Shown here one piece after another: positions 26,625 through 51,974 of a DNA stretch of 64,000 bases (its first letter is position 1; each line of letters opens with the position of its first letter). The position numbers and the translations under genes are program-made. The DNA comes from an uncultured Bacilli bacterium (GTDB lineage: Bacteria > Bacillota_I > Bacilli_A > RF39 > UBA660), in assembly GCA_944331865.1 (NCBI GenBank), contig CALVIZ010000002.1, positions 12,227 to 76,226 of the forward strand, given 5' to 3'. The notes under the pieces were generated by a model. That model searched no databases. It was given only the letters and a program-made list of their open reading frames with translations, and had not been told where the DNA came from.

Positions 26625-26652
26625 AATATAAAAAAAGAACCGAAGTTCTTTT
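26625..26652 (-). terminator. Terminator after the 587-aa transporter gene
   Basis: Hairpin AAGAAC-ttcg-GTTCTT with a T-run on the minus strand overlapping the stop codon. Confidence 0.55.
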
Positions 26653-28414: not shown

Positions 28415-28449
28415 TTTCTTTACCTCCTTATTAAAATTATATCACTCAT

Positions 28450-28480
28450 ATTCAAGAAAAAAAAGCAAATATTGCTTTTT
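28450..28480 (-). terminator. Terminator after the arcD-like gene
   Basis: Hairpin AAGCAA-atatt-TTGCTT flanked by A- and T-runs. Confidence 0.5.
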
Positions 28481-28492
28481 TGCTTATTTTTT

Positions 28493-29941: not shown

Positions 29942-29943
29942 TT

Positions 29944-33116: not shown

Positions 33117-33151
33117 ATCCTCCTCTATTATAATTATTATAGCATATAAAA

Positions 33152-33184
33152 AAAAGAAAAACTATCATTTTTTGATAGTTTTAA
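33152..33184 (-). terminator. Terminator after the 315-aa gene, upstream of the arc operon
   Basis: AAAACTATCA-tttttt-TGATAGTTTT perfect 10-bp stem with a T-run. Confidence 0.6.
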
Positions 33185-34135: not shown

Positions 34136-35635
34136 CTATTTATCTTTAGGTTTCATAGTTGGAAATAAAATTACTTCTCTAACTGTTTCACAACCAGTTA
34201 GTAACATCACTAATCTATCTATTCCTATACCTAAACCACCTGCTGGAGGCATACCATATTCTAATGCCTCAATAAAATCTATATCCATTTCATTTGCTTC
34301 TTCATTACCTAATTCTTTTTCTTTAAGTTGACTAGCAAATCTTTCATATTGATCTATTGGATCATTTAATTCAGTAAAAGCATTGGCATATTCTGAACCA
34401 GCGATAAACAATTCAAATCTTTGTGTAAATCGTTCATCTTTAGGATCTTTTTTTGCTAATGGGCTTATTTCAATTGGATGACCAAATACAAAAGTTGGTT
34501 CAATTATTGTATCTTCTACATATTTTTCAAAAAATGCATTTACAATGTGACCATAAGAAAAATGTTGTTCTATTTCAATGTTATGTTCTATTGCTAATTT
34601 TTTAGCATCTTCAAAACTCATATTTTGGAAAAAATCTATTCCTGTTTTTTCTTTTATTAAATCAACCATATGTGCTCTTTTAAATTTAGGAGCTAAATTT
34701 AGATGATGACCTAAAAAATCAACTTCGTATGTACCATTTAATTTAAATGCGGCATTGCTAATTATGCCTTCACAAATATCCATCATGCCTTCTAAATCAG
34801 AAAATGCTTTATATAATTCTATCGTTGTAAATTCTGGATTGTGCTTGCGATCCATTCCTTCATTTCTAAAAAGTCTTCCTATTTCATATACAGCATCCAT
34901 ACCTCCAACTAATAGTCTTTTTAAAGGTAATTCAGTAGCTATTCTTAAATACATATCAATATTTTGTGCATTGTGATGAGTTACAAATGGCTTAGCTGCT
35001 GCACCACCTAAAATTGTTCCTAAAATTGGAGTTTCTACTTCAACATAGCCTAAATTATCTAGATATTCTTGAATATATCTTATAATTTTAGGACGAGCAA
35101 ATGCTACTTTACGAGCATCATCATTCATTATTAAATCTACATATCTACGACGATATCTTTCTTCAATATCATTTAATCCATGATACTTTTCTGGAAGCGG
35201 TCTTAATGCTTTAACTAAATGAGTATATTCTAAACATTTTACTGTAATTTCACCAGTTTGGGTTTTCATTAATATTCCTTTTACCCCAACTATATCACCA
35301 ATATCTGCACTTTTAAATAAATTATATGTTTCTTCACCAACATCATTTATTGAAATATATATTTGAATATTTCCTAGTTTATCTTTAATTGAAAAAAAAC
35401 TTGCTTTACCCATTTTTCTAATAAACATTATTCTACCTGCTATTGATACTTCTATATGCATATTTATTAGTTCATCATGTAAAACTTCTTGGTATTTATC
35501 TTTTAATTCTTTAGAAAAATTAGTTACTTCAAAACGATGTCCAAATGGATCTATTCCTAGTTCTCGTAACTTTTTTAATTTTTCTCTTCTGACTAATTCT
35601 TGTTCACTAAATTCTCTCAACTTCATCACCTGCAC
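34136..35635 (-). CDS. lysS: Lysyl-tRNA synthetase, class II
   Basis: N-terminal OB fold, then class II motifs 1-3 (including FRNEG and GLGIGIDRLVMLLTG). 499 aa. Confidence 0.92.
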   Translation of the reverse strand: MQVMKLREFSEQELVRREKLKKLRELGIDPFGHRFEVTNFSKELKDKYQEVLHDELINMHIEVSIAGRIMFIRKMGKASFFSIKDKLGNIQIYISINDVGEETYNLFKSADIGDIVGVKGILMKTQTGEITVKCLEYTHLVKALRPLPEKYHGLNDIEERYRRRYVDLIMNDDARKVAFARPKIIRYIQEYLDNLGYVEVETPILGTILGGAAAKPFVTHHNAQNIDMYLRIATELPLKRLLVGGMDAVYEIGRLFRNEGMDRKHNPEFTTIELYKAFSDLEGMMDICEGIISNAAFKLNGTYEVDFLGHHLNLAPKFKRAHMVDLIKEKTGIDFFQNMSFEDAKKLAIEHNIEIEQHFSYGHIVNAFFEKYVEDTIIEPTFVFGHPIEISPLAKKDPKDERFTQRFELFIAGSEYANAFTELNDPIDQYERFASQLKEKELGNEEANEMDIDFIEALEYGMPPAGGLGIGIDRLVMLLTGCETVREVILFPTMKPKDK

Positions 35636-35715
35636 ATATTATACTTAATTTCTAAATAAAAGTCTATTATTTATATTAAAAATATGCATAAAAAAAAGTC
35701 AATTTAATGACTTTT

Positions 35716-36255
35716 TTATATCTTATATAGTTTTTTGTTTTTCTTAGATACTATGTATATTACTGCTACTGCTCCAACGCCACAAGCAAGTATTGTTAGC
35801 GGAAGTGTTGCTCCAGTACTTACTTCTTCTTCGACATCTACTTCAATTTCAATTTTACCACCTACTGATGGATTATTAACTGTTAATGTACAACCCGTTA
35901 CTCCTTCTTCTACTTCAAGTACTACTGTTGCTAAATCAAATTTAGATGCACTTATACCTTCAGTTGATGTAAACATAAAACTTGCAGAATTTCCAGTATT
36001 ATTTTTCCATCCATCGGCAGCTGTAACTGAAACTATTTTTCCTTTGTCTGATGGGGTAAATACAAATTCGCCACTAAATTCATTTAATGTGGTATTATTG
36101 TTTTCAATCCATATTTCACATACAGATTGACATACACCTTCAGGACAATCTGTTTTCTTTTCACAACTACCCTTTATGTCTAATGCCTTTGCACTTAAAG
36201 GTAATATTGCAACTATACATACTACTAAAAAACCTATAAATTTTTTCACACACAT
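35716..36255 (-). CDS. Secreted or cell-surface protein with an N-terminal signal peptide, a Cys-rich N-region, and a C-terminal hydrophobic anchor plus KKNKK tail
   Basis: Start is at the ATG preceded by AGGAGAG. Signal peptide MCVKKFIGFLVVCIVAILPLSAKA. C-terminus TLPLTILACGVGAVAVIYIVSKKNKKLYKI. The overall layout resembles a sortase substrate but no canonical sorting motif is present. Confidence 0.5.
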   Translation of the reverse strand: MCVKKFIGFLVVCIVAILPLSAKALDIKGSCEKKTDCPEGVCQSVCEIWIENNNTTLNEFSGEFVFTPSDKGKIVSVTAADGWKNNTGNSASFMFTSTEGISASKFDLATVVLEVEEGVTGCTLTVNNPSVGGKIEIEVDVEEEVSTGATLPLTILACGVGAVAVIYIVSKKNKKLYKI

Positions 36256-36280
36256 CTCTCCTATCTCTATTATGTCTAAA

Positions 36281-36351: not shown

Positions 36352-36417
36352 AAATTAGAAATAATTCAGGAAAAATTTCATCAAGTTTTTACACTTAGTT
36401 TTAAAATGTATAAATTA

Positions 36418-37950
36418 TTAGTTTTTCTTACGCATTAATTTATGATCTGTATCAATTATTTCAGTTACATTATTAGTATTTCTTGATTTTATTGTTCCTA
36501 TATTTTTCATATTCAAATTATCTATTACCTCAGCATCTGTTAAAACACAAGTAAACAAATCATAACAACAAATTGTTTGAAGATTTATTCTAGCTCCTCT
36601 ACTACCTGTAAAATCTATGCTATATATGTTTACCCCATCAAATGGGCCGATAAATTCTACTTCTGAGAATTTACATTCTTTTAAATTTCCGTCATAAACT
36701 GTTTGAGGATTTATTTTGGCTCCTTTGCTTTCTGTAAAATCTGCATGATTTATTTTTGCTCCATCAAATGGGCCAATAAATTCTATTCCTGAGAATTTAC
36801 TCCATATTAAATCTTTTTCAAAAACTGTTTGAGGATTTATTTTAGCTCCTTTACTCCCTGTAAAATCTGAGTAACTTATATAAACTCCATCAAATGGGCC
36901 ATCAAATTCTATTCCTGAAAATTTGCAATTATATAAATATTTTTTATAAATTGTTTGAGGATTTATTTTAGCTCCTTTGCTTCCTGTAAAATCTGAATTA
37001 GATATTATTACTCCATCAAATGGACCTATAAATTCTACTCCTGAAAATGTACATCCATTTAAATTTTTTTCAAAAACTGTTTGAGGATTTAATTTTACTC
37101 CCTTAAATCCAGTAAAATTAAGTCCACGTATATCTACATTATCAAAAGATACATTACTAAAATCAATCTTTTTCAATAATTTCTCAGACATTTTAAATTT
37201 TCTACAAGGTATTCTATCTGCAAATAGAGTCTCTGTAGAAGATTTATCGAATTCTATAACATCCGTAACAAATAAAATATCTGGATTAGGTAAAGTTATA
37301 TATTCACCATCTTTTAATTTTTCTAAAACTTCTATTAGGTTTTGTATTTCTATATTCATTACCTCAGCATCTGTTAAAGTAGACAAACCATCATAATAAA
37401 CATTTTGTAGATCTACTATAGCTCCTTTACTTCCCATAAAATTTGTTTGGGATAAATGTACTCCATCAAATGGGCCGATAAATTCTACTCCTGATAATGT
37501 ACATCCTCTTAAATTTTTATCGTAAATTGTTTGAGGATTTATTTTAGCTCCTTTGCTTTCTGTAAAATTTGCACCTGCTATTTTCGCTCCATTAAACGGA
37601 CCTATAAATTCTACTCCTGATAATTCACATCCCCTTAAATCTTTATTTTGAACTGTTTGAGGATTTAATTTTACTCCCTTAAATCCAGTAAAATTAAATC
37701 CACTTATATCTACATTATCAAAAGATACATTACTAAAATCAATTTTTTTCAATAATTTCTGATTTATTACAGATGTTATTTCCCAATAATATTGCCCACA
37801 CTTTGCTATCTTTTCAAATAAAATGTGTGGATTAGATAAAGTTATATGCTTACCATCTTCTAGACTTTCTAAAATCTTTATTAATTGTTGTCTTTTAATC
37901 CGTAACCAATTTTCATATGTATTTTTTAAAATTTGATTAATATAAATCAT
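36418..37950 (-). CDS. 40-aa-repeat family protein, paralog A. A fused double module of 510 aa.
   Basis: Two complete N-domain+repeat modules are joined in one ORF. Repeats carry GVEFIGPFDG and (D/N)FTGSKGAKINPQT(V/I)Y. No signal peptide. Conserved C-terminal tail ...HKLMRKKN. Confidence 0.7.
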   Translation of the reverse strand: MIYINQILKNTYENWLRIKRQQLIKILESLEDGKHITLSNPHILFEKIAKCGQYYWEITSVINQKLLKKIDFSNVSFDNVDISGFNFTGFKGVKLNPQTVQNKDLRGCELSGVEFIGPFNGAKIAGANFTESKGAKINPQTIYDKNLRGCTLSGVEFIGPFDGVHLSQTNFMGSKGAIVDLQNVYYDGLSTLTDAEVMNIEIQNLIEVLEKLKDGEYITLPNPDILFVTDVIEFDKSSTETLFADRIPCRKFKMSEKLLKKIDFSNVSFDNVDIRGLNFTGFKGVKLNPQTVFEKNLNGCTFSGVEFIGPFDGVIISNSDFTGSKGAKINPQTIYKKYLYNCKFSGIEFDGPFDGVYISYSDFTGSKGAKINPQTVFEKDLIWSKFSGIEFIGPFDGAKINHADFTESKGAKINPQTVYDGNLKECKFSEVEFIGPFDGVNIYSIDFTGSRGARINLQTICCYDLFTCVLTDAEVIDNLNMKNIGTIKSRNTNNVTEIIDTDHKLMRKKN

Positions 37951-37979
37951 TATTATCCCTCCCTATATAAATTTCATTT

Positions 37980-38008
37980 ATATTATCAAAAAAAAGATAG
38001 GATGTCAA
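37980..38008 (-). promoter_or_regulatory. Sigma-A promoter of paralog A: TTGACA-N17-TAATAT
   Basis: The minus strand reads ttgacatcctatcttttttttgataatat, about 25 nt upstream of the RBS GGGAGGG. Confidence 0.55.
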
Positions 38009-38164
38009 TTTATAACATCTTAGCGTAATTTTTTCCTAAGTATAACATTTTAAAATTCCAAAGTTTAACATTTATAATGGTTTAAAAAAATAATTTGATA
38101 ATATTCTTTAAGAAAATATAATTGCATTTTAGAAATGGACATTATAAAGAGTACAAAAAAATTT

Positions 38165-38310
38165 TATTATTGACTTATCAAAAAAATACCTAACATTATT
38201 TGAAATCTTCCGTTTCACAACAAACAAAAAATGAGCTAGCTTAGTATTTCCTAAATTTGCTCATTTTTGCTGTCAAATTCAATTTATAACATAAAAATAT
38301 AAAAGTCAAT
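38165..38310. repeat. ~140-bp direct repeat R1, copy 1. Contains a hairpin aaaatgagc...gctcatttt.
   Basis: About 90% identical to 42800-42935. Confidence 0.7.
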
Positions 38311-38327
38311 ATAGAAGTATATAATTA

Positions 38328-39014
38328 CTAGAAGTGTTTTTTATTCCTAGTTAATTCCATTAAAACGAAACCAGGAGGAGGTGATTTTGGTTCGTAATCA
38401 TAATAGTCTATTATCTCAACATTTGTTAAAATAGACGAATTAGCATAAGATACTTTTTTCCGATCTACTATAGCCCCCTTACTGCCTGTAAAATCTGCAT
38501 ATAATAAGGTTGCACCATCAAATGGACCTATAAATTCTACTCCTGAGAATATACAGTAACTCAAATCTTTTTCAAAAACTCTTTGAGGATTTATTTTAGC
38601 TCCTTTGCTTCCTGTAAAATCTGTTTCGTATAAATATATTCCATCAAATGGGCCTATAAATTCTACTCCTGAAAATTTACATCTACTTAAATTTTGGGCA
38701 TAAACTGTTTGAGGATTTATTTTTACTCCCTTTAATTCAGTAAAATCCATCCCTCTTATATCTACATTATCAAAAGATATGTTACTAAAATCAATCTTTT
38801 TCAATAATCTCTCAGGTATTGCAAATTTCTTATAAGAACTACTTTCATTAAATAAAATATTTGCATCAGATAATGTCAAATATTTACCATCTTCTAGACT
38901 TTCTAAAATATTTATTAATTTTTGCCTTTCTGCTTTTATTCTATTATAAAACTCTAAACTATTTCTAATTCCATTTAAAGATTGACTATTGAAACTCATT
39001 ATTATTCCTCCCAT
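38328..39014 (-). CDS. 40-aa-repeat family protein, paralog B (228 aa, ~3 repeats)
   Basis: Conserved N-domain (LESLEDGKYLTLS), NPQT-containing repeats, and a divergent C-terminus. Confidence 0.65.
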   Translation of the reverse strand: MGGIIMSFNSQSLNGIRNSLEFYNRIKAERQKLINILESLEDGKYLTLSDANILFNESSSYKKFAIPERLLKKIDFSNISFDNVDIRGMDFTELKGVKINPQTVYAQNLSRCKFSGVEFIGPFDGIYLYETDFTGSKGAKINPQRVFEKDLSYCIFSGVEFIGPFDGATLLYADFTGSKGAIVDRKKVSYANSSILTNVEIIDYYDYEPKSPPPGFVLMELTRNKKHF

Positions 39015-39028
39015 TATAATTTAAATTT

Positions 39029-39057
39029 ATATTATCAAAAATAAGTTATGATGTCAA
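39029..39057 (-). promoter_or_regulatory. Sigma-A promoter of paralog B: TTGACA-N17-TAATAT
   Basis: The minus strand reads ttgacatcataacttatttttgataatat. Confidence 0.5.
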
Positions 39058-39092
39058 CTAAGTCATATTATCTTACACAATTGTCAAAATTA

Positions 39093-40151
39093 TTAATTTT
39101 TCTTCCGCATTAATTTAAAATTAGCATCAACTATCCCGGTTTCATTATTAGTATTTATTGATTTTATTGTTCCTATATTTTCTATATCCATTAGCTCAAC
39201 ATCTGTCAAAACACAAGTAGAAAAATCGTCATAATAAACTGTTTGAGAATCTATTCTAGCTCCTTTACTACCTGTAAAATTTGTTTTAGATATATTTGCC
39301 CCATCAAATTCACCGATAAATTCTACTCCTGAAAATGTACACCCACTTAAATCCTTATTTATAACTGTTTGGGGGTTTATTATAGCTCCTCTACTACCTG
39401 TAAAATTTGTTTTAGATATGTTTGCTCCATCAAACGAACCATCAAATTCTACTCCTGAAAATATACATCCACTTAAATCCCTCTTTATAACTTTTTGAGG
39501 ATTTATTCTAGCTCCCATACTGCCAGTAAAATTTGTTTTAAACAAGTATGCTCCATCAAATTCACCAATAATGCTAAAAACAGATCTCATTCCATAATCT
39601 TCAGGAATAAATATAACTCCAGATAATACGCAAAATCTAAAATCTCTATAATAAATTTTTTGGGGAGATATTAAGGCTCCTTTACTCCCTGTAAAATTTG
39701 CTCTAGATATTTTTGCTCCATCAAATGGTCCTATAAATTTTACACCAAAGAATGTACATCCTCTTAAATCTTTTTTATAAACTCTTTGAGGATCTATTCT
39801 AACTCCTTTACTACCAGCAAAATTTGTATCATACATATATGTATAATCAAATGAACCGTCAAATTCTACTCCTGAGAATGTACATCCTCTTAAATCTTGT
39901 TTATAAACTTTTTGAGGGTCTATTTTTACCCCCATATATCCAGTAAAATTAAGGCCACGTATACATACATTATCAAAAGATATATTACTGTAATCAATCT
40001 TTTTCAATAATCTTTTAGGTATTGCAATTTCCTTATAAACTTTACCATCTTCTACCTCAATTTCCTTAAATATAATATTTGGATTAGTCAAAGTTATATA
40101 TTCATCATCTTCTAAACTGTCTAAAACTTCTATTAGCATTTCTAAATTCAT
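39093..40151 (-). CDS. 40-aa-repeat family protein, paralog C (352 aa, subfamily 2 N-terminus MNLEMLIEVLDSLEDDEY)
   Basis: Repeats with (N/D)FTGS(K/M)G(A/V)RI(D/N)PQ(K/R)VY. Conserved C-terminal tail IDANFKLMRKKN. Confidence 0.65.
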   Translation of the reverse strand: MNLEMLIEVLDSLEDDEYITLTNPNIIFKEIEVEDGKVYKEIAIPKRLLKKIDYSNISFDNVCIRGLNFTGYMGVKIDPQKVYKQDLRGCTFSGVEFDGSFDYTYMYDTNFAGSKGVRIDPQRVYKKDLRGCTFFGVKFIGPFDGAKISRANFTGSKGALISPQKIYYRDFRFCVLSGVIFIPEDYGMRSVFSIIGEFDGAYLFKTNFTGSMGARINPQKVIKRDLSGCIFSGVEFDGSFDGANISKTNFTGSRGAIINPQTVINKDLSGCTFSGVEFIGEFDGANISKTNFTGSKGARIDSQTVYYDDFSTCVLTDVELMDIENIGTIKSINTNNETGIVDANFKLMRKKN

Positions 40152-40232
40152 AAGTATCTACTCCTCGTAAAATTACATTTATAATAATCACAAAACAAAA
40201 AATCAAATATTTTTTCATTAAAACTCAAGATT

Positions 40233-41132
40233 TTATTTCTTTCGCATTAATTTAAAATTAGCATCAATTAACCCAGTTTCATCATTACTATTTCTTGATT
40301 TTATTGTTCCTATATTTTCCATATTTATGTCATCAATTATCTTAGCATCTGTTAAAACACAAAGAGACAAATCATCAAAATAAACCGTTTGAAGATCTAT
40401 TTTAGCTCCTTTACTACCTGTAAAATCTGTTTCGTGTAAATATATTCCATCAAATGGGCCGATAAATTCTACTCCTGAGAATTTACATCTTCTTAAATTT
40501 CTCTTATAAACTGTTTGAGGTTCTATTCTAGCTCCTTTGCTTCCTGTAAAATCTGCTCCTTCTATTATCACTCTATCAAATGATTCAATAAATTCTACTC
40601 CTGAGAATTTACATTCACTTAAATTTCCCTTATAAACTGTTTGAGGATCTATTCTAGCTCCTTTGCTTCCTGTAAAATCTGCACCATTTATTTTCACTCC
40701 ATCAAATGGGCCGATAAATTCTACTCCTGAGAATTTACATTCACTTAAATTTTTATTGTAAATTGTTTGGGGATTTATTTTAGCTCCTTTGCTTCCTGTA
40801 AAATTTGTTTTAGATATATTTGCACCATCAAATGAGCCATCAAATAATACTCCCGATAATACACAAAAGTTAAAATCCTTGTCATAAACTGTTTGAGGAT
40901 CTATTTTTACTCCAATAAATCCAGTAAAATCAAAGCCACATATACATACATTATCAAAAGATACATTACTAAAATCAATCTTTCTCAATAATCTCTCAGG
41001 TATTGCAATTTCCTTATAAACTTTACCATCTTCTAAAACTTTTTCCTTAAATATAATATTTGGATTAGCCAAAGTTACATATTCATTATCTTTCAAACTA
41101 TCTAAAGCTTCTATTAGCTTTTCTAAATTCAT
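40233..41132 (-). CDS. 40-aa-repeat family protein, paralog D (299 aa, subfamily 2)
   Basis: Same architecture. C-terminal tail IDANFKLMRKK. Confidence 0.65.
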   Translation of the reverse strand: MNLEKLIEALDSLKDNEYVTLANPNIIFKEKVLEDGKVYKEIAIPERLLRKIDFSNVSFDNVCICGFDFTGFIGVKIDPQTVYDKDFNFCVLSGVLFDGSFDGANISKTNFTGSKGAKINPQTIYNKNLSECKFSGVEFIGPFDGVKINGADFTGSKGARIDPQTVYKGNLSECKFSGVEFIESFDRVIIEGADFTGSKGARIEPQTVYKRNLRRCKFSGVEFIGPFDGIYLHETDFTGSKGAKIDLQTVYFDDLSLCVLTDAKIIDDINMENIGTIKSRNSNDETGLIDANFKLMRKK

Positions 41133-41200
41133 ATTTTCAACTCCTCACAAAATTGCATTTATAATAATCACAAAAACAAAAATATCAAGTTTTTCATAAC

Positions 41201-42718
41201 TCAAAGCTGATTTTTATTCCGTATTAATTTATAATCAGCATCAATTAGACCAATTTCATCATTAGTAATTCTTGATTTTATTATTCCTATTTTTTCCATA
41301 TCTATGTCATCCGTTATCTCAACATCTGTTAAAACACAAAGATACAAACAATCATAATAAACCGTTCGAAGATTTATTTTAGCTCCTTTGCTTCCTGTAA
41401 AATCTAATTCGTTTAAATATATTCCATCAAATGAACCTATAAATTCTACTCCTGATAATTTACATTTTTCAAAACTATAAAGTGTTTGAGGATTTATTCT
41501 AGCTCCTTTGCTTCCTGTAAAATCTGCACCATTTATTTTCACTCCATCAAATGGGCCTATAAATTCTACTCCTGAGAATGTACATTCTTTTAAATCACTG
41601 TAAATTGTTTGAGGATTTATTTTAGCGCCTTTACTTCCTGTAAAATCTGCACCATTTATTTTCACTCTATCAAATGGGCCAATAAATTCTACGCCTGAAA
41701 ATTTGTTCCAACTTAAATCTTTTTCATAAACTGTTTGAGGATTTATTTTAGCTCCTTTGCTTCCTGTAAAATCTGCTCCTATGTAATCTGTATAACCAAA
41801 ATATACTAATTCTACTCCATCAAATGAGCCGATAAATTCTACTCCTGAGAATGTACATCCACTTAAATATTTATTGTAAATTGTTTGGGGATTTATTTTA
41901 GCTCCTTTACTTCCTGTAAAATTTGCACCAACTATTTTTGCGCCATCAAATGGGCCGATAAATTCTACTCCTGATAATATACACCATATAAATTTTTTTT
42001 CAAAAATTGTTTGAGGATTTATTTTAGCTCCTTTGCTTCCTGTAAAATCCGCTCCTTCGCTTCCTAAATCATCAAAATGTACTAAGTCCGCTCCATCAAA
42101 TGGGCCAATAAATTCTACTTCTGAAAATTTACATCCTCTTAAATTTTTTTTAAAAACGGTTTGAGGATTTATTTTAGCTCCTTTGCTTCCTGTAAAATTT
42201 GCTTTTTCTATCATTACTCCATCAAATGGACCTATAAATTCTACTCCTGAAAATTTGTTCCAACTTAAATCTTTTTCATAAACTGTTTGAGGATTTATTT
42301 TGGCTCCTTTGCTTCCTGTAAAATTTGTTCCTTCTATTATCACTCCATCAAATGGGCCGATAAATTCTACTCCTGATAATTTACACCCTCTTAAATTTTT
42401 TTTAAAAACGGTTTGAGGATTTATTTTTATTCCCTTATATCCAGTAAAATTAAATCCTCTTATGTCTACATTATCAAAAGATACATTACTAAAATCAATC
42501 TTTTTCAATAATATCTCAGGTATTGCAAATTCCCTATAAGAGTAGTTCTCATTTTCTTCAATTTCATTGAATAAAATATCTGCATTAGATAATGTTAAAT
42601 ACTTACCATCTTCTAGGCTTTCTAAAACATTTATTAGATTTTGCCTTTCAGCTTCTATTCTATTATAAAATTCTAAACTATTTCTATCTTCATTTAAAGA
42701 TTGACTATTGAAACTCAT
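41201..42718 (-). CDS. 40-aa-repeat family protein, paralog E (505 aa, ~8.5 repeats)
   Basis: N-domain as in paralog B. Eight near-identical repeats (KFSGVEFIGPFDG...ADFTGSKGAKINPQTVY). C-terminal tail IDADYKLIRNKN. Confidence 0.7.
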   Translation of the reverse strand: MSFNSQSLNEDRNSLEFYNRIEAERQNLINVLESLEDGKYLTLSNADILFNEIEENENYSYREFAIPEILLKKIDFSNVSFDNVDIRGFNFTGYKGIKINPQTVFKKNLRGCKLSGVEFIGPFDGVIIEGTNFTGSKGAKINPQTVYEKDLSWNKFSGVEFIGPFDGVMIEKANFTGSKGAKINPQTVFKKNLRGCKFSEVEFIGPFDGADLVHFDDLGSEGADFTGSKGAKINPQTIFEKKFIWCILSGVEFIGPFDGAKIVGANFTGSKGAKINPQTIYNKYLSGCTFSGVEFIGSFDGVELVYFGYTDYIGADFTGSKGAKINPQTVYEKDLSWNKFSGVEFIGPFDRVKINGADFTGSKGAKINPQTIYSDLKECTFSGVEFIGPFDGVKINGADFTGSKGARINPQTLYSFEKCKLSGVEFIGSFDGIYLNELDFTGSKGAKINLRTVYYDCLYLCVLTDVEITDDIDMEKIGIIKSRITNDEIGLIDADYKLIRNKNQL

Positions 42719-42799: not shown

Positions 42800-42935
42800 T
42801 TTATTATTGATTAAAAAAATACCTAACATTATTTGAAATTTTCTGTTTCACAACAAACAAAAAATGAGCAATCTTAGTATTTACCTAACTTTGCTCATTT
42901 TTGCTGTCAAACTCAAGTTATAATATAAAAATACA
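42800..42935. repeat. ~140-bp direct repeat R1, copy 2
   Basis: About 90% identical to 38165-38310. Contiguous with R2 copy 2. Confidence 0.7.
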
Positions 42936-42988
42936 AAAAACAACATATTTTTTTAAAAATTATATTAAAATGTGTAAAATTGTGTTAT
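42918..42988. repeat. 71-bp direct repeat R2, copy 2
   Basis: Near-identical to 36281-36351 with 1-2 mismatches. Lies immediately upstream of the sortase-like gene. Confidence 0.8.
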
Positions 42989-43014
42989 CATATTAAAGTA
43001 ATATAGGTGAAGTT

Positions 43015-44589
43015 ATGAAAAAAGTATTAATAAGAATAAAGGATAATAGTTTTATTGTAAAAGAAAAAATTAAATTGTCTAGTGAATATAAAAATATTTT
43101 AAATACTAATGTAATTAGTTGTAATGAACTAGTTTTTTCTAATGAATATATTGTAAATAACCCCAAAATTGTTAGTAATTTTATTCAAGAATTATCTAAA
43201 ACTTACAATATTGATACTTTAATAATTGAAAAAAATGACTTTACTTTGTTATTCTTGAATATTGTAAAAAATAATAAAAACATAACTTCTTTAATTTTAA
43301 AAGATGATACACCTTTAACTTTTAAAATGTGTGAAGCTATTATGCACTCTTATGTTAAGAATGTCAATTGTTATACTTTACAACCATTTATGATAGAATA
43401 CCTTGATAAATATAATATTATTGTTGAATCTAGAAATGAAATACTATATTTATCTAAATTTATGATTGATAATAATTTAAGTATTTTTTCATCTATGTTT
43501 TATAAAATGACTCTAAATATGGATTTACCCTTGAATGAACAAGATGAACAAGATTTTGAAGCTTTTTGTAAAATTAATAAATATTTAAAAAATATTAATG
43601 TTAATATTGTTAATAAAAATGATTTAGAATTTATTATTAAAACTTTAAGACAAAATAATAAAAAGAATATTAAAATTAATATTCATGAAAATATAAGTAA
43701 TGTAGAATTAATTGAATATTTAAAGAATTTTAATAAGAGGAAAAGTAAAAAATATAAAATATATTTTCGCTTAGTATATAGTAATGATTATTTAAAAGAT
43801 AATATTTTTAAACAAACTAATTTAAGTTTACTTAAAACATGTGGTTATTTAATTTTGTTAATTGTATTTTTTTCTTTTGGTTATGTCTTTTATGATAATT
43901 ATAAATCTATGCAAAGTGATAATAACATAAAAGAAAATATAACAAAAGTTATTGAAATAAATGATTCTGAAGATATTATTGCGGAACTTAATAAAGATAA
44001 GCAGGAAGATGAAAAATTAGTTGTTAATGAAGATATTGCTAGTTTAATAAATGTAAATCCAGAAGTAGTGGCATGGATTAAAGTTAATAATACTAATATT
44101 GATTATCCAATAACCCAAACAGATAATAATGAATTTTATTTAAAACATAATTTCTATTTAGAAAAGGATAATAATGGTTGGGTTTTTATGGATTATCGAA
44201 ATCATACTGATGATTTAAGTGATAATATCATTCTTTATGCTCATAATAGATATTATAGTGGTATTATGTTTGGTACATTACAAAATACTTTAAGATATAG
44301 TTGGTATACTAATCCCGAAAATCAAATTATTAGTTTAAGAACTCTATATGAAAATTTAGAATATCAAGTATTTTCCGTTTATAAAATTACAGTTACTACC
44401 GATTATATGCAAACTTTATTTGCAGATGATAATGATCGATTAAACTTTTATAATATGTTAAAAAATAGAAGTATTTATAATTTTAATGTTGAACTTAAAG
44501 GTAGTGATAAAATAATAACTTTATCAACTTGTGCTGAAGATAATAGTAGATATGTATTACATGCTGTTTTAAAAAACGATGATAAATAG
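43015..44589 (+). CDS. Class B sortase-like transpeptidase domain fused to a ~280-aa N-terminal cytoplasmic extension and one TM helix
   Basis: The C-terminal ~190 aa carry SrtB-family hallmarks: the catalytic His context IILYAHNR, the Cys motif TLSTC, a downstream Arg, and the VAWIKVNNTNIDYPITQTDNNEFYLKHNF segment typical of SrtB. A TM helix LLKTCGYLILLIVFFSFGYVFY is preceded by a K/R-rich stretch, giving N-in topology. RBS taggtgaagtt, then ATG. Confidence 0.7.
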   Translation: MKKVLIRIKDNSFIVKEKIKLSSEYKNILNTNVISCNELVFSNEYIVNNPKIVSNFIQELSKTYNIDTLIIEKNDFTLLFLNIVKNNKNITSLILKDDTPLTFKMCEAIMHSYVKNVNCYTLQPFMIEYLDKYNIIVESRNEILYLSKFMIDNNLSIFSSMFYKMTLNMDLPLNEQDEQDFEAFCKINKYLKNINVNIVNKNDLEFIIKTLRQNNKKNIKINIHENISNVELIEYLKNFNKRKSKKYKIYFRLVYSNDYLKDNIFKQTNLSLLKTCGYLILLIVFFSFGYVFYDNYKSMQSDNNIKENITKVIEINDSEDIIAELNKDKQEDEKLVVNEDIASLINVNPEVVAWIKVNNTNIDYPITQTDNNEFYLKHNFYLEKDNNGWVFMDYRNHTDDLSDNIILYAHNRYYSGIMFGTLQNTLRYSWYTNPENQIISLRTLYENLEYQVFSVYKITVTTDYMQTLFADDNDRLNFYNMLKNRSIYNFNVELKGSDKIITLSTCAEDNSRYVLHAVLKNDDK

Positions 44590-44603
44590 TTCATCGTTTT
44601 TTT
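44573..44603 (+). terminator. Rho-independent terminator of the sortase-like gene
   Basis: aaaaacgatga-taaatag-ttcatcgtttttttttt: 8-9 bp stem plus a T-run. Overlaps the stop codon. Confidence 0.7.
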
Positions 44604-44606
44604 TTT

Positions 44607-45805
44607 AATTGTAATTTCAACCGCACCATTTAATATAATTTTAACAAACAATAAAAATTTGTCAATTTTTTTCTTTTTTGTTTGATAATTTTTATAAATA
44701 TATATTATGGTTTTTTTGTCAATGACACGCAGTGTTTATTTTATCATTGACAAAAAAATCATAATATTATTACAATTTTAATCAAACAAAAATAATAATT
44801 AATATTCCATTTCTTTTTCATATGAGTTTTTAAATCCAAACATTTTTCTTGGCATTGAATTAATATTAAATGCTATGTCATCTAGATATATTTGTGGGGT
44901 TATTTTAAATGACATTCCTTTTGGTAAATATCTTCTTACTATTGCATTTGTTCTTTCATTTGTTCCTCTTTGAAACGAACAATATGGATCACATTTATAT
45001 AGTTTTACTCCTAGTCTTTTTGCTGCTATTCCCATTGCTCTAAATTCTAATCCATTATCTATTGTTATTGATTTTACTTTTATTTCATTTTTTATTATAT
45101 ATTTATATATTAGGTTTGCTGTATAATAATCATATCTATATTCTGACTTTATTAACCATACTCTCCTTGTACATCTATCAACTATTGATACTATTGATTG
45201 TTGTTCATCCTTTTTTCCTAGTATTGAATCTATTTCCAAATGCCCTGGCTCTCTTCTTTCTTCTATATATTTTGGTCTTAATCCTATTGGTAATATTGTT
45301 TTATTTTCTAGATTCCATATGAAATGTTCCATCATTCCACTTCTCTTTTTCTTTTTGTGCTTTTTATAACATAAATCTGTTCTTTTTAAATATATTTTTC
45401 CTTGTTCTATCCAATTATATACTTGTTTTACACTTACACTTTTTTCTCCTAAATACATTTTCTTAAATCGATATACACATACTTCTATTGAATGATCTTT
45501 TCTATCATAATGATCAAATAAATATTTTATAAATATTTCATATTTCTTATTTATATCTATTTTCCTTTTTTTATATATTCCCGCTTTATATCTTGATATT
45601 GTTGAATGACTTATACCTAATCTTCTTCCTACTTCTCTCATTGATAAATTTTGTTTTAACAAAATATCAATTTCTACTTTATTTTTTTCTGTTAATTGTT
45701 TATAATGCATATAAGAGCTCCTCCTTGCCGGGTTGTGGGCTCTTTTATTATACCAAAAAAAGCCGCACCTTGTGGTGCGGTTCAAATTTCAATTTAGGAA
45801 AAACG
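44607..45805 (-). mobile_element. IS30-family insertion sequence (~1.2 kb) with terminal inverted repeats and a ~32-bp flanking duplication
   Basis: IRL aattgtaatttcaaccgcacca at 44607-44628. IRR (reverse complement) aattgaaatttgaaccgcacca at 45784-45805, a 20/22 match. Flanking direct repeat aaaaacgatgataaatagttcatcgttttttt at ~44573-44604 and ~45810-45841. Confidence 0.75.
44799..45710 (-). CDS. IS30-family transposase (DDE)
   Basis: N-terminal HTH (LSMREVGRRLGISHSTISRY). DDE residues with the IS30 signature ...QRGTNERTNAIVRRYLPKG. The start was trimmed to the ATG at 45708-45710 (MHYKQL), which is preceded by AGGAGGAG. Confidence 0.85.
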   Translation of the reverse strand: MHYKQLTEKNKVEIDILLKQNLSMREVGRRLGISHSTISRYKAGIYKKRKIDINKKYEIFIKYLFDHYDRKDHSIEVCVYRFKKMYLGEKSVSVKQVYNWIEQGKIYLKRTDLCYKKHKKKKRSGMMEHFIWNLENKTILPIGLRPKYIEERREPGHLEIDSILGKKDEQQSIVSIVDRCTRRVWLIKSEYRYDYYTANLIYKYIIKNEIKVKSITIDNGLEFRAMGIAAKRLGVKLYKCDPYCSFQRGTNERTNAIVRRYLPKGMSFKITPQIYLDDIAFNINSMPRKMFGFKNSYEKEMEY

Positions 45806-45828: not shown

Positions 45829-46788
45829 TTATAAAAAAGGATTTATTCTTTGTAATTCTTCATTACTATTATACATATTCATTTCTTCAAATATTCCTTT
45901 AGTTAAATCAGCATTTTCATTATAAAAATCAATAAGTAATTGAGCCCCTAATTCTTTATCACATAGTATCTCTTCTATTAAGTTATCTATATCTTCACCT
46001 TGATCTATTAAATCTATTAATATTTCTGTGCTTTCTTTTTCTTTATCTTCACTTTCTTCATTAAAATCATTTTCAGAATAATAATCAGATTTATATAATA
46101 CATTTTTATAAATATTAAATAACATATATTGTATTAAAAAACGAATGTCTAAATTAAATTCTATTACCAGTTCTAAAAATTTTTCCCAAATAAATACATC
46201 CTCATTTTTGCCATATATATACCTACTTTGAGCTTGAGCCAGTTCATTTAGTTCTATTATTTTACTAATTATCCGTTCTTCATCCGATAAATCTTTAGCA
46301 TTATCTTCCATTGTAAATATTGAAAAAGGATTTATTTTTAATAATTTACTTATTTCTTTATTAGCAATTAAATATTCCCTTGCTTTGTAACTTACTAAAT
46401 AATTACCCTCATTAACCATTTCAACATAATATAAAATAATCATTTTATCAATTGGTTTTTTTATTTTTTCTTTTAAAGATAAAGATTCTATGTTTTCTTT
46501 AACTGAATCGCTATATGGCATTGGTATATTTATTGCTTTAAAATAATTAATAAACAAATAAGCCATTTCATATACATATAATTTTAATATAACGATAATG
46601 TTTTCTTTTGTTAAGTTGTATTTATCTATGTATTGGGCAAAATCATTTTCAAAATTAGTAGACTTGCCTTGTAAATAATTTGTTATTTCATCTACTATAG
46701 TTTCACTATTATATAAAACATTAGTATTAGCATTAAATTTTTGAATAATTTCTATAATAATATTTTCTTTTAGCTCAATTTCCCCCAT
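45829..46788 (-). CDS. Hypothetical cytoplasmic protein (319 aa, acidic)
   Basis: ORF between the two IS30 copies. No motif. Confidence 0.45.
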   Translation of the reverse strand: MGEIELKENIIIEIIQKFNANTNVLYNSETIVDEITNYLQGKSTNFENDFAQYIDKYNLTKENIIVILKLYVYEMAYLFINYFKAINIPMPYSDSVKENIESLSLKEKIKKPIDKMIILYYVEMVNEGNYLVSYKAREYLIANKEISKLLKINPFSIFTMEDNAKDLSDEERIISKIIELNELAQAQSRYIYGKNEDVFIWEKFLELVIEFNLDIRFLIQYMLFNIYKNVLYKSDYYSENDFNEESEDKEKESTEILIDLIDQGEDIDNLIEEILCDKELGAQLLIDFYNENADLTKGIFEEMNMYNSNEELQRINPFL

Positions 46789-46795
46789 AAAAACC

Positions 46796-47590
46796 TCAAT
46801 TTACTACAGTTGAACTATAATAATAAAAACTGTCAGTTTCTTTATCATATTTAAAACTATGTTCATATGTTACTAGATTATTTATATAATCGTTTATATT
46901 AAAATTAGAACTATAAACTATTGCAGTATTTAAATCTTTTCTATCTTCATCATTATAACATTGCTTCGTTTCTAAATCACACTTTAAATAATAATCATAT
47001 ATTTTTATTACGTTATTATTTTCCGTTAATGCATATCTGATTATTTCTTTATATTCAATATAATTGTTACTTATATTTTCATTTGTGTCATATATATAGT
47101 AATATTCATTGTTATATTTTGCTTTAATGTTTTTATTATAATCAAAATCTGTTGATATAAATTTTATATCTGGACCTAATATAGTTTTGGCAGCTTCTTT
47201 AAATTTACTTAAACTGACTTTATATAATGGAGTATAATTATTAGTATTATTTAATACTTCAGATAATTCTTCTTTAGTTAGTACTTCTAAACTAAAATTA
47301 TCATATTTTAGTATGTATTGATAAATCATTGCTTGGATATATCTTGTATTTTGATTAGCTAAATTTGTATTAATTACATAATGAATTGAATGCACTCCAT
47401 CATATTCTAAAGCATTATCATTTAATAAATATGAATAAAGTTCTTTTACTGTACTTTCACCTATTTCATCAATGTTTGTATTTGTTTCTTTATTATTTTT
47501 TTCAAAATTAAATAATTTATAAAAACCAAAGCATGATCCAAGTACTAATAAAACAACACCGATTATTATTGCTATTTTTTTTGCATTCAT
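46796..47590 (-). CDS. Hypothetical membrane-anchored or secreted protein (264 aa)
   Basis: N-terminal signal-anchor MNAKKIAIIIGVVLLVLGSCFGFY. Confidence 0.45.
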   Translation of the reverse strand: MNAKKIAIIIGVVLLVLGSCFGFYKLFNFEKNNKETNTNIDEIGESTVKELYSYLLNDNALEYDGVHSIHYVINTNLANQNTRYIQAMIYQYILKYDNFSLEVLTKEELSEVLNNTNNYTPLYKVSLSKFKEAAKTILGPDIKFISTDFDYNKNIKAKYNNEYYYIYDTNENISNNYIEYKEIIRYALTENNNVIKIYDYYLKCDLETKQCYNDEDRKDLNTAIVYSSNFNINDYINNLVTYEHSFKYDKETDSFYYYSSTVVN

Positions 47591-47663
47591 TATTCATTCA
47601 CCTTAATAAAATTTTAGCATTTTTTTTTATTCTTGACAATAAAAAATCAAGATTTCTCTTGAT

Positions 47664-48980
47664 TTAATCAACTATATTTATACATGTATAATTCTTTTGA
47701 TCATAGTAATTTTTTAGTCCACTATATGTTCTATCAAATACTCCACCTGCTTCTGTATCTAATGTACTGGCACTTAAATCAGTGGCAATTTTTAATGTAT
47801 AATTTTCATCATCATATTCTGCTAGACCACTTATATTATTAAATGTTATTGTTTCTGGCTTACCATTAGTTATTTGAATATAATCATCATTATTACTAAA
47901 TTTATATGTATATATTCTTTGTGATATTTCTAAATATCCTAAACCATTTTCTGTTGCCCCTAAAACTAAATTATCTGTAGTTGTCATTGATCCAGAATAT
48001 CCTTCAATTTCACTATCTAATGATGTGCATGATCTAATTGCTGTGATGTCACTTGGAGATACATATAATATTGCGTTTACTTCTTTGCTATTATTTTCAT
48101 CATCTGAAAGTGTTATACCTACATTATATGGACCACCCGCTGTTGATAAATAACTATTTACAGTCTCTTTATTACTAAATGCATATTTACAATTTGATGG
48201 ATCTGTACATGATACTATAAAGTCATCAACTGAAATTGTAGTTGTATTTATTACTTTATATACCGTTTTTAATTGCGCTGTTGGTGCTGTTTTGTCTACT
48301 ACGTGTATTGTTCCTGTATAAGTATCTTCACCACAAGTTATAGTAAAATTATAATCTCCTAAAGCATTAGTATTTACATTATTAATATTTTTTTCACAAG
48401 TTGCTGCTCCCCCACCAGTAATTGTTGCATAATCACTTATATCATCAGATAATGTTTCCCCTAATCCTAAGGTTACATCTTTTATTTGAACATTTACTTT
48501 ATTATTCGCCATATTTAAATAATAATATACCCCAAATGCTACAGCTCCGATTAGTATTACTATTATTATTGTAAATAATACTTTATTCATTGGCCTTTTT
48601 GGTTTTTCTTGTTTTGGTGGTACTGCCCCTATATCTTCAACTTTTGTTGGTTCAACAAAACCATTATTATTTATATTGCCTAATGATATTCCTCCTGGGT
48701 CTTGACCTATAGAACTTCCCATATTATTTGGCATATTATTGTTTTCAGTTCCAGGAATTGGTGTTGCTACTGGATTGTTTTGTGGATTATTTGGCATGCT
48801 TATAGTATCTGAAACAGTATTTGTTACTGGTGTGCTGTTTAAATTAGTATTAACTGAATTAGTTACTGGTTCACCAACTGGTTGAGTTTGAATTGTTGGC
48901 TCTGGATTTTGACTTACTGGTTGTTCATTTAAATTATTACTTTGATTTTGTCCTAAATTATTAAAATTTTGCTCATTCAT
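47664..48980 (-). CDS. Hypothetical bitopic protein (438 aa). Q/N/P-rich N-terminus, one TM, extracellular C-terminal domain.
   Basis: Low-complexity N-terminus (NLGQNQSNNLNEQPVSQNPEP...). TM helix VLFTIIIVILIGAVAFGVYYYL. Confidence 0.45.
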   Translation of the reverse strand: MNEQNFNNLGQNQSNNLNEQPVSQNPEPTIQTQPVGEPVTNSVNTNLNSTPVTNTVSDTISMPNNPQNNPVATPIPGTENNNMPNNMGSSIGQDPGGISLGNINNNGFVEPTKVEDIGAVPPKQEKPKRPMNKVLFTIIIVILIGAVAFGVYYYLNMANNKVNVQIKDVTLGLGETLSDDISDYATITGGGAATCEKNINNVNTNALGDYNFTITCGEDTYTGTIHVVDKTAPTAQLKTVYKVINTTTISVDDFIVSCTDPSNCKYAFSNKETVNSYLSTAGGPYNVGITLSDDENNSKEVNAILYVSPSDITAIRSCTSLDSEIEGYSGSMTTTDNLVLGATENGLGYLEISQRIYTYKFSNNDDYIQITNGKPETITFNNISGLAEYDDENYTLKIATDLSASTLDTEAGGVFDRTYSGLKNYYDQKNYTCINIVD

Positions 48981-49178: not shown

Positions 49179-50372
49179 ATGGCAACTGTATCAAATTATA
49201 ATAAACATACAAAACTATCAGAAAGAATTAAAATTGAAAATGGTCTTAATAATGGGTTATCTTTCAGAAGTATAAGTAAAGATATTAATAAAAGTGTTAC
49301 TACAATATCTCGTGAAGTCTTTAATCGTAGATATAAAGAAAAAGGTAATTACTTTAATGGCTTTCCTGGTAAATGTTCTAAATTAGATAAGGCTCCATTT
49401 GTTTGTAATTCTTGTCCTAATTCAAAAAAATGTAGAATGACAAAGTTTTATTATAGTGCTGCTCACGCTGAAGAAGATTATAAGAAATTATTAGTTGAGT
49501 CTAGAACTGGAATTGATCAAACTACTGAAGAATTTAAAAATCTTAATAAAATTGTAAAAACAGATATTGATAAAGGGCATTCTTTTTCTCTAATTATAAA
49601 TAATCATCCAGAACTAAATATAACTGAAAGAACACTTTATAATTATCAAGAAAAAGGTTACTTATCTACTAAAAATATAGATTTACCAAGAAAAGTTAGA
49701 TATAAAAAAAGAAAAAGAAATTGTATAACTTCTAGTAAAAAAGAAAACCATTGTAGAATTAATCGTACTTATAATGATTTTCTTATATATATAAAAGAAA
49801 ACAATATCACTTATTATACACAAATGGATACTGTTGAAGGCATAATTGGAACTGGGCAGCCATGTTTATTAACTTTGTATTTAAAACATGCCCAACTCCT
49901 ACTTATATTTAAAATTTCAGAACAAACCATTACCTGTGTTAACAACAAAATTAAAGAAATAAAATCACTTATAGGTAATGAAATGTTTCATGAAATTTTC
50001 CCTATTATTTTAACAGACAATGGCTCTGAATTCAAGCGACCAGAAGAAATAGAGGATAATGGTATCCATGTAATTAATTCTAAAGTTTTTTATTGTGACC
50101 CTCAAAGAAGTAATCAAAAATCTCAAATTGAATTATCACATGAATATATAAGAAAATATATACCAAAAGGTATTTCATTAAATAACTATACAGATAATAA
50201 TATATTAGATATGATGAATAACATTAACTCAACTCCAAGAAAATCACTTGATTTTAAATCACCTTATGACATAGCTAAAAATATGTTTGGTGAAGAGGTA
50301 TTAAACAAATTGGGAATCGTTAAAATTGATAGCAAAAACGTAATATTAAATGATAGTCTATTTAATAAATAA
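49179..50372 (+). CDS. IS30-family transposase, second distinct copy
   Basis: N-terminal HTH (LSFRSISKDINKSVTTISREV). C-terminal IS30 signature ...QRSNQKSQIELSHEYIRKYIPKG. RBS AAAGGAGG. IS ends not determined. Confidence 0.8.
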   Translation: MATVSNYNKHTKLSERIKIENGLNNGLSFRSISKDINKSVTTISREVFNRRYKEKGNYFNGFPGKCSKLDKAPFVCNSCPNSKKCRMTKFYYSAAHAEEDYKKLLVESRTGIDQTTEEFKNLNKIVKTDIDKGHSFSLIINNHPELNITERTLYNYQEKGYLSTKNIDLPRKVRYKKRKRNCITSSKKENHCRINRTYNDFLIYIKENNITYYTQMDTVEGIIGTGQPCLLTLYLKHAQLLLIFKISEQTITCVNNKIKEIKSLIGNEMFHEIFPIILTDNGSEFKRPEEIEDNGIHVINSKVFYCDPQRSNQKSQIELSHEYIRKYIPKGISLNNYTDNNILDMMNNINSTPRKSLDFKSPYDIAKNMFGEEVLNKLGIVKIDSKNVILNDSLFNK

Positions 50373-50666: not shown

Positions 50667-51974
50667 TTAGATTAATTTTTTAAATTCTTCTCCCCTATCT
50701 TCAAATTTTTGATATTGGTCTTGTGATGAACTGCCTGGTGATAATAATACTATTTCTCCTGGTTTTACATTTTCTTTTATTTTATCCATAGCTTTATTTA
50801 ATGTATAACATTTAAAACATTCAATCTTTATTTTATTTGCATAATTATCTATGGTATCAGTAACTTCTCCAATAGCATATATTGCTTTGACATTTTTAAT
50901 ATAATCATTTAATTCATTAAAATCTTGATTGCGATTTAAACCACCTAAAATTAGATGAATTGGTTTATTAAATGTTTTTAAAGCTGTAATTGTAGCTGTT
51001 GGATTTGTACTTTTAGAATCATTATAATATTCAACATTATTTTTGGTAGTTACATATTCAATTCGATGCTCTACACCATTAAAATTCTTTAAAAAATTTC
51101 TAACTTTTTCTTTATCTATTCTAAATTGTTTTAATACTAGTAAAGATGTTAAAATATTTTCATAATTGTGTTCACCTTTAATTTTAACTTCTCTTAAATC
51201 TAATAATTTTTCTTTATTTAAGTATAGTAAGTTATCTTTTATATAATTAATTTCATCGTTGAAATATATCTTCGTTGATTTAATATCTTTAGTTAAATCT
51301 AAACTATCAGGATTTTTCTTATTAATTATGGCAATATCTTTTTTAGTATGATGATTAAATATATTCTTTTTAGCTAATTTATAATTTTCATAACTACCAT
51401 GATAATCTAAGTGAGTAGGACATAAATTTGTAAGAACACTAATATTAGTTTTAAAATCAATAAAATCATATAATTGATGATCACTTATTTCTAAAAGCAA
51501 TATCGAATCATTATCAATTTCAGTTAATATATCACATAATGGATAACCAATATTACCCCCTAAAGTTACTTTGTAACCATGTAATTTTAATAATTCATGT
51601 ATAATCGTTACAGTAGTTGTTTTACCATTTGAACCTGTAACACCAATTATTTTAATGCCTTTTGGTAAATAATGATAAGCAAGTTCCATTTCATTTATAC
51701 ATTTTATATTTAGTTTCTTAATTTTTTGCATTATTTCACTAGTTGCCATTATAGCAGGATTTTTTATTATTAAATCATATTCATTTGATATTAAATCTAG
51801 TTGCTCTTCAGTAATAATTATTTTAACATTTAATTTATTTAATAATTCTTCATCTTTTTCCTTAAGTGGTTTTAAATCACTTAAGGTTACATCATTGTTT
51901 TTAGCTAATATCTTAGCTGCTGCTATTCCACTTCTTGCTGCTCCTAATATTAAAATTTTTTTATTTTCATACAT
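50667..51974 (-). CDS. murD: Mur ligase family protein, likely UDP-N-acetylmuramoylalanine--D-glutamate ligase
   Basis: N-terminal Rossmann ILILGAARSGIAAAKIL, ATP-binding P-loop GVTGSNGKTTT, about 435 aa. Assignment to MurD versus another Mur ligase is tentative. Confidence 0.6.
   Translation of the reverse strand: MYENKKILILGAARSGIAAAKILAKNNDVTLSDLKPLKEKDEELLNKLNVKIIITEEQLDLISNEYDLIIKNPAIMATSEIMQKIKKLNIKCINEMELAYHYLPKGIKIIGVTGSNGKTTTVTIIHELLKLHGYKVTLGGNIGYPLCDILTEIDNDSILLLEISDHQLYDFIDFKTNISVLTNLCPTHLDYHGSYENYKLAKKNIFNHHTKKDIAIINKKNPDSLDLTKDIKSTKIYFNDEINYIKDNLLYLNKEKLLDLREVKIKGEHNYENILTSLLVLKQFRIDKEKVRNFLKNFNGVEHRIEYVTTKNNVEYYNDSKSTNPTATITALKTFNKPIHLILGGLNRNQDFNELNDYIKNVKAIYAIGEVTDTIDNYANKIKIECFKCYTLNKAMDKIKENVKPGEIVLLSPGSSSQDQYQKFEDRGEEFKKLI

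Follow-up and report, generated by a model that had tools for sequence, protein, structure and literature searches.

The locus described here raises the question of what a sortase acts on when a large domain precedes its membrane anchor and the genes next to it encode repeat proteins rich in a sortase-like motif. It lies in a stretch of 64,000 nucleotides from an uncultured Bacilli bacterium (GenBank assembly GCA_944331865.1, contig CALVIZ010000002.1), which has a G+C content of ~25% and is called the window in its full length. An earlier note on this DNA had described the product of the open reading frame (ORF) at 43015..44589 as a sortase-B-like domain fused to a cytoplasmic extension, and had considered that it might process or cross-link the products of an adjacent array of genes with NPQT repeats. 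The reading that we prefer, with a probability of about 0.72, is that the ORF encodes a dedicated class B sortase (SrtB) of a low-GC gut Bacilli clade, that its partner is the divergent secreted substrate encoded at 35716..36255 on the minus strand, and that the array is an unrelated insertion.

A class B sortase with an N-terminal extension

The gene and the predicted parts of its product (lengths in amino acids, aa) are:

43015..44589, plus strand: N-extended class B sortase, 524 aa, ATG start, from the ORF listing
43015..43800, plus strand: cytoplasmic N-terminal domain (N-domain), residues 1-262, a predicted orphan beta/alpha-repeat solenoid
43822..43896, plus strand: single transmembrane anchor, residues ~270-294, preceded by the basic stretch KRKSKKYKIYFR
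44029..44586, plus strand: extracellular SrtB catalytic domain, residues ~339-524, from alignments to 2oqw, 1rz2 and 1ng5
44242..44244, plus strand: catalytic His410
44530..44532, plus strand: catalytic Cys506
44548..44550, plus strand: catalytic Arg512

An AGGTGA Shine-Dalgarno sequence is found just 5' of the start codon. The protein matches the Pfam Sortase domain at residues 355-519 (E 7e-11, 42.3 bits versus a threshold of 26.6) and, at residues 273-510, the NCBIfam model TIGR03064 'class B sortase' (161.2 bits versus a cut-off of 153.75), corresponding to MEROPS C60B. When all PDB chains were searched with phmmer, the best matches were to B. anthracis SrtB (E 3.5e-30), and the S. aureus enzyme, entered in the PDB as 'NPQTN specific sortase B', matched at ~1e-29. 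C. difficile SrtB (4ux7, 5gyj) was also among the sequence and structure matches, and a homologue of the protein has already been named 'class B sortase' by NCBI. The full-length AlphaFold2 model likewise matched SrtB structures (Foldseek E 2e-14, template modelling score relative to the target 0.6-0.7).

In the HMMER alignments, His410 (in YAHNR), Cys506 (in TLSTC) and Arg512 fall on the catalytic positions of 2oqw, 1rz2 and 1ng5. Of 63 family members, 62 have the His, 62 the Cys and 57 the Arg; 5 have Lys at the position of the Arg. In one member of 519 aa (P0145), possibly an inactive sortase, Phe replaces the catalytic Cys (LTLTTF). Judged by its sequence, the ORF is a real class B sortase with the His/Cys/Arg triad kept, as the earlier note had proposed.

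The transmembrane segment, with a Kyte-Doolittle hydropathy peak of 2.05, is the only hydrophobic segment of the sortase. Net charge is +7 in the 32 residues preceding it and -4 in the 30 residues beyond. A plausible topology is thus N-in and C-out, with ~265 residues in the cytoplasm and the catalytic domain outside. This is also the orientation that had been suggested earlier, together with an extension of ~280 aa; a folded extension was indeed found, of about 262-270 aa.

The extended form is conserved. Alignments spanning 99-100% of the sortase, at 58-99% identity, were obtained with more than 120 metagenomic proteins of 520-530 aa. We also assembled 77 related loci, one genome per species, and examined 10 kb on each side of the sortase gene. 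The N-extended sortase was present in 74 of them (39-93% identity), nearly always in full length. Record titles of these loci include 'uncultured Bacilli', 'uncultured Tenericutes', 'Firmicutes bacterium CAG:460' and 'Clostridium sp. CAG:609', and we take the genomes to represent RF39-type gut lineages. Most RF39 species have been predicted to possess m-DAP-type peptidoglycan (m-DAP being meso-diaminopimelic acid) and srtA/B sortases (PMC10868615). Literature searches on N-terminally extended sortase B and on RF39 sortases returned no description of the fusion.

The N-domain has no family match in Pfam, NCBIfam or PADLOC searches. An AlphaFold2 model built from 64 diverse sequences (predicted local distance difference test, pLDDT, 87.2; predicted template modelling score 0.73) contains about eight repeats in which short beta-strands and helices alternate with a period of ~25-28 residues. 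Such alternation, at such a period, recalls leucine-rich repeat (LRR) domains of the ribonuclease-inhibitor, NLR and F-box types. Fold resemblance to LRR or TIM folds is weak, with LRRs the most frequent of the weak matches. The model is best described as a putative orphan LRR-like beta/alpha-repeat solenoid, and we do not file it as a member of the LRR family. Mean pairwise identity is 32% in the N-domain, 16% in the extracellular linker and 49% in the catalytic domain.

Searched alone with phmmer against 1.84 billion representative proteins, the N-domain gave 160 matches. A sortase domain was present in 51 of the 52 full-length matches, the exception being a spurious match to a repeat protein; the N-domain is found only fused to this SrtB family. 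A stand-alone N-domain protein was considered and rejected, as the short matches, which stop within the linker or the transmembrane helix, look like fragments from contig ends.

Extensions of another kind were seen in two metagenome-assembled genomes of Clostridia/Oscillospiraceae (L079:9440-10861 and L080:9140-10690). Their SrtB-like proteins, of 473 and 516 aa, carry an unrelated, acidic, low-complexity region of ~200-240 aa before the transmembrane helix. From these sequences, cytoplasmic add-ons to SrtB seem to have arisen more than once, and the earlier wording 'unlike known sortases' was too strong.

Predicted substrate and NPQT array

In relatives of the window, the substrate gene lies directly upstream of the sortase gene and divergent from it, at a distance of 70-140 bp, and is followed by lysS; it encodes a protein of ~180 aa. 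The window contains an ortholog (34% identity to the product of the gene directly beside the sortase in locus L001), located on the far side of the array and adjoining lysS (34136..35635). Its features are:

35716..36255, minus strand: predicted cognate substrate, 179 aa counted from Met19 of the longest ORF, ortholog of the sortase neighbor
35812..35826, minus strand: sorting motif EVSTG, residues 144-148, predicted cleavage T147/G148
35746..35811, minus strand: hydrophobic helix of the sorting signal
35719..35745, minus strand: conserved cytoplasmic tail KKNKKLYKI of the sorting signal
Peptide spanning the cleavage motif: VEEEVSTGATLP

The substrate begins with a signal peptide, which is followed by a domain of ~120 aa that evolves fast; next come five residues that form the motif, the last two being TG, and then a hydrophobic helix with a basic tail. 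Adjacent substrate genes were identified in 63 loci and gave 65 signals, since L026 and L067 have two each; the second substrates of these two loci are unrelated to the first and have the same tail. All 65 sorting signals beside sortases end in TG. As TG was required for their collection, independent support for its invariance comes from an alignment of 32 substrates (27% mean column identity), where no columns but T147 and G148 are invariant. In the same alignment, the tail residues K172, K175 and Y177 reach a conservation of 90% or more, and tail endings of the form [LMIF]Y[KR][IV] occur in ~60 of the 65 signals.

The remainder of the motif is more variable. At position 2, 30 signals have Pro, 18 have Thr and 12 have Val. 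The clade of the window has E-[VT]-x-T-G, and distant relatives have NPKTG, NPSTG, NPETG, NPQTG, VPKTG or PPETG at the same place. The NPQTG case (L059:9138-9806, minus strand) stands in the classical C-terminal context, followed by transmembrane helix and tail after the G, which indicates that the sortase family can use an NPQT-type signal in that context.

The non-redundant loci contain 1268 ORFs of 100 aa or more, 81 of which end in a transmembrane helix with a basic tail. A TG motif and an end of the form [LMIF][YFH]x[IVLM] are found in 65 of the 81, and these 65 are all encoded beside the sortase. The Pfam model Gram_pos_anchor detects only 2 of the 32 substrates.

For the mature domain, no match to Pfam or another annotated family was found. 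A profile of the substrates gave a weak match in the PDB to B. subtilis YcnI (7me6; E 1.3e-4, residues 43-126), a copper-binding DUF1775 protein. The match hints at a beta-sandwich, perhaps metal-binding, surface domain, and we regard it as a lead and not as an assignment.

By analogy, the sortase and the small secreted protein would form a dedicated pair, as expected for an arrangement like that of SrtB and IsdC in B. anthracis (NPKTG) and S. aureus (NPQTN). The likeness extends to the catalytic domain (E ~1e-30, triad aligned), the membrane anchor N-terminal to it, the presence of the substrate gene in the same locus, and the NPKTG, NPSTG and NPQTG motifs of distant family members. C. difficile SrtB is similar in fold (4ux7, 5gyj), and its signals also end in TG. 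They are [SP]PxTG and NVQTG, the latter showing that a residue other than Pro is tolerated at position 2.

The window system and characterized SrtBs differ in a folded cytoplasmic N-domain, a relaxed clade motif and a conserved sorting-signal tail. Unlike the B. anthracis and S. aureus enzymes, the window sortase has ~262 folded cytoplasmic residues before its anchor, and its loop between Cys and Arg is 4 residues shorter. The motif of its clade lacks Asn and Pro. Its substrate, unlike IsdC, lacks a NEAT or haem-uptake domain and falls in no annotated family. The tail is conserved in sequence, where the tails of known sorting signals, with L078 as the one case compared here, are merely basic. 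C. difficile SrtB, in contrast, has no N-terminal cytoplasmic domain and serves several dispersed substrates. To our knowledge, sortases have been described as small type II membrane enzymes with their specificity in an extracellular motif.

A sortase with a substrate of its own could also be a polymerase that joins the small protein into a fibre, like the class B-type pilus sortases of S. pyogenes and S. pneumoniae. The locus does hold a dedicated sortase/substrate pair, two substrates are present in some loci (L026, L067), and a pilus-system structure of the SrtB family, 4y4q, was among the structural matches (PMC3019223). However, in the 32 aligned substrates the mature domain has no conserved lysine or pilin-type motif, Cys122 being its only near-invariant residue; most loci have a single small substrate and no genes for tip or base pilins; and the enzyme gives its best sequence matches with SrtBs that act in anchoring, from B. 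anthracis and S. aureus. We consider polymerization improbable, and anchoring remains the preferred reading.

The competing substrate candidates are the proteins of the array that separates the sortase gene from the predicted substrate gene in the window:

36418..42718, minus strand: five pentapeptide-repeat paralogues (the NPQT array), PF00805
36278..36351, no strand assigned: left copy of a duplicated 74-bp core of the sortase/substrate intergenic region, repeat family D8
42915..42988, no strand assigned: right copy of the 74-bp core, immediately upstream of the sortase gene
NPQT-repeat peptide of the array: KGAKINPQTVYEK

The divergent adjacency of array and sortase gene, noticed earlier, is real, and PF00805 is found on all five paralogues (E 3e-18 to 3e-7; 30-65 bits versus a threshold of 20.2), as are NCBIfam pentapeptide models. 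NPQT occurs 17 times in exact form and 30 times if variants such as DPQT and NPQK are included, fewer than the ~35 copies first counted, and it occupies a fixed position of a 42-aa super-repeat (...FTGSKGAKINPQTVY...), where units of ~40 aa had been assumed. In their pentapeptide models, cytoplasmic character and missing signal peptide the array proteins resemble Qnr and MfpA (PF00805), and they differ from these in the 42-aa super-repeat with GAKINPQT, in a distinct ~70-aa domain at the N-terminus and in a C-terminal end that is conserved. The array proteins had no PADLOC match, and no solved relative was detectable by sequence.

The idea that the sortase acts on the NPQT repeats, cutting out units of ~40 aa or cross-linking them after unconventional export, draws on the position of the array and on its motif. 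The array physically adjoins the sortase gene, in the window as well as in two conspecific loci (L083, L084) and in a related species (L081), NPQT resembles the NPQTN motif of S. aureus SrtB, and the first array gene has a copy of the substrate-side intergenic core upstream of it. The proteins themselves are not in agreement with it. Neither a signal peptide nor a C-terminal transmembrane helix or sorting signal was found in them, as the earlier note had also stated, and yet the catalytic domain is extracellular. In the array, every NPQT has V, I or L as its next residue, and none has G or N; the cognate signals, in contrast, all carry TG at the end of the motif. Among 120 homologues of the array proteins, GAKINPQT is a family-wide repeat signature.

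Genome comparison points in the same direction. No ORF with NPQT repeats was found within 10 kb of the sortase in any of the 77 related loci, 74 of which have the N-extended form; these include L004, where the sortase is 93% identical and its gene directly adjoins a different gene. Conversely, four of four distant NPQT-bearing homologues have no sortase nearby, their neighbors being uvrC/GH25, rplS, rpmA and ftsA-ftsZ. Co-occurrence, which had been proposed as a check, is thus missing outside the immediate relatives, and a far better substrate is conserved beside the sortase. We regard processing of the repeats as very improbable; the evidence favors the fallback of the earlier note, namely that the motif is simply structural.

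The array can be recognized as an insertion relative to L004, because window positions 26627-36365 and 42915-44604 are contiguous there in blastn. The two sequences are collinear save for the 6.5-kb array and two copies of IS30. An array occurs at this spot only in the species of the window, in 3-5 copies, and in one relative: the conspecific loci (sortase 99.6% identical, no IS30) have three paralogues, and L081 (sortase 84% identical) has four. An array ancestral to the sortase locus was considered and rejected, as loci with sortases of 99.6% and 84% identity have it, whereas those at 93%, 83% and 81% do not. Recent gain and easy loss fit this patchy distribution better than a functional partnership does.

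The intergenic sequences are consistent with such a history. In array-bearing loci the 74-bp core is present twice, flanking the array on both sides, whereas loci that lack the array have a single copy. Recombination across the two copies would cleanly delete the array. Both copies carry promoter-like hexamers on both strands (consensus matches only), and with this duplication the first array gene sits behind a copy of the apparent substrate promoter. Within the array, a partial third copy of the intergenic core is found at 38247..38313, and there are internal segmental duplications (repeat families D5, D7 and D9). By its sequence, then, the array is a set of unrelated cytoplasmic pentapeptide-repeat proteins inserted between sortase and substrate, a copy-number-variable, mobile family that would owe its place beside the sortase to insertion.

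Possible roles of the N-terminal domain

Starting from the family membership, the aligned triad, the topology signals and the conserved pairing, and borrowing the cleavage steps from SrtB biochemistry, the preferred reading can be written as a pathway. The substrate precursor would be exported by Sec, with the hydrophobic helix and basic tail at its C-terminus retaining it in the membrane. Outside, Cys506 of the SrtB domain would attack the T147-G148 bond of EVST/G. By analogy with known enzymes, the thioester acyl-enzyme would be resolved by an amine of a peptidoglycan precursor, and the ~120-aa domain would become fixed to the wall. The N-domain would stay in the cytoplasm; the role that we favor for it, speculatively, is to dock on the tail K-x-x-K-[LMIF]-Y-[KR]-[IV]-COOH.

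An abundant, uncultured gut Bacilli lineage combines a SrtB that has a conserved cytoplasmic domain with a substrate tail as conserved as the cleavage site. This conservation is the first argument for tail docking. Others are that the unrelated second substrates in L026 and L067 share the tail, that the N-domain exists only in this sortase family and is constrained (32% mean pairwise identity versus 16% in the linker), and that a conventional 257-aa SrtB relative (L078, n=1) has a neighbor with TPKTG and a generic tail, KMKRN. The sortase would then read its substrate on both sides of the membrane, through a relaxed xxxTG outside and through the N-domain on the conserved tail inside. We put this forward tentatively and think it, on balance, unlikely. 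If true, two-sided recognition would account for how this clade could lose the Asn-Pro of its motif. We know of no description of two-sided substrate selection by a sortase; an interaction of N-domain and tail would add a new layer to sortase substrate selection and offer a handle for orthogonal sortase/tag pairs.

With the same enzyme and the same substrate, the N-domain might instead localize or regulate the sortase, for instance at the divisome, at the wall-synthesis or secretion machinery, or in response to a cytoplasmic signal, and not touch the substrate at all. This is equally simple. Repeat solenoids are generally used for protein-protein contacts, and the most conserved stretch of the N-domain, residues ~119-194 (including VESRNEIL), is invariant among close homologues. 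Conserved genes nearby encode a Mur ligase and two membrane-anchored proteins, and the unrelated SrtB extensions of other lineages suggest reasons for such domains apart from the substrate tail. However, a localizing or regulating role leaves the conservation of the tail, equal to that of the cleavage motif, unexplained, and no candidate partner for the N-domain was found. It is a real possibility, if still on the unlikely side.

Several points weigh against the preferred reading of a dedicated pair and against the docking attached to it. Canonical SrtB motifs have an Asn and a Pro that are missing from EVSTG, and cleavage at its T/G is therefore extrapolated from relatives. No adjacent substrate was found in L020 (partly masked), L051, L072 and L074, and other substrates may be encoded beyond 10 kb on either side of the sortase. 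In the full-length model, pLDDT is below 50 at residues 372-419, His410 included; because of this low confidence, the geometry of the triad rests on sequence alignment and not on a reliable three-dimensional superposition. Tail docking, finally, is purely speculative, with a conventional-SrtB comparison of n=1, and the conservation of the tail could reflect the needs of membrane retention or insertion, or shared ancestry. Tail type (YKI versus FY[KR]V) follows phylogeny.

Other genes around the locus

Beyond the sortase gene, the following features were located:

44799..45785, minus strand: IS30-family transposase just downstream of the sortase gene (NF033563, 199.6 bits versus a cut-off of 80)
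49179..50372, plus strand: IS30-family transposase (NF033563, 99.4 bits versus a cut-off of 80)
45829..48980 and 50667..51974, minus strand: three genes for proteins of 319, 264 and 438 aa, downstream of the sortase gene, with a Mur-ligase gene

Neither IS30 copy is present in L004 or in the conspecific loci L083 and L084, which points to recent insertion sequence activity around the sortase locus in this strain. The 319-, 264- and 438-aa proteins had no match in Pfam, NCBIfam or PADLOC. The two latter proteins have a single transmembrane anchor each, and the 438-aa protein has an N/Q/P-rich N-terminal region. In L001 and L083, too, the sortase has counterparts of these two (264/268 aa and 437/486 aa) and of the Mur ligase in its vicinity.

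On the other side of the substrate gene, synteny and gene lengths relative to L083 suggest an arginine deiminase pathway cluster at 26651..33168 on the minus strand (arginine deiminase, ornithine carbamoyltransferase, carbamate kinase and two DcuC-type transporters), which adjoins a gene for a 315-aa protein and lysS. GC skew is negative in every 2-kb bin of the window (cumulative -7.7). Nearly all of its long ORFs are on the minus strand, the sortase gene and one IS30 copy being among the few genes on the plus strand.

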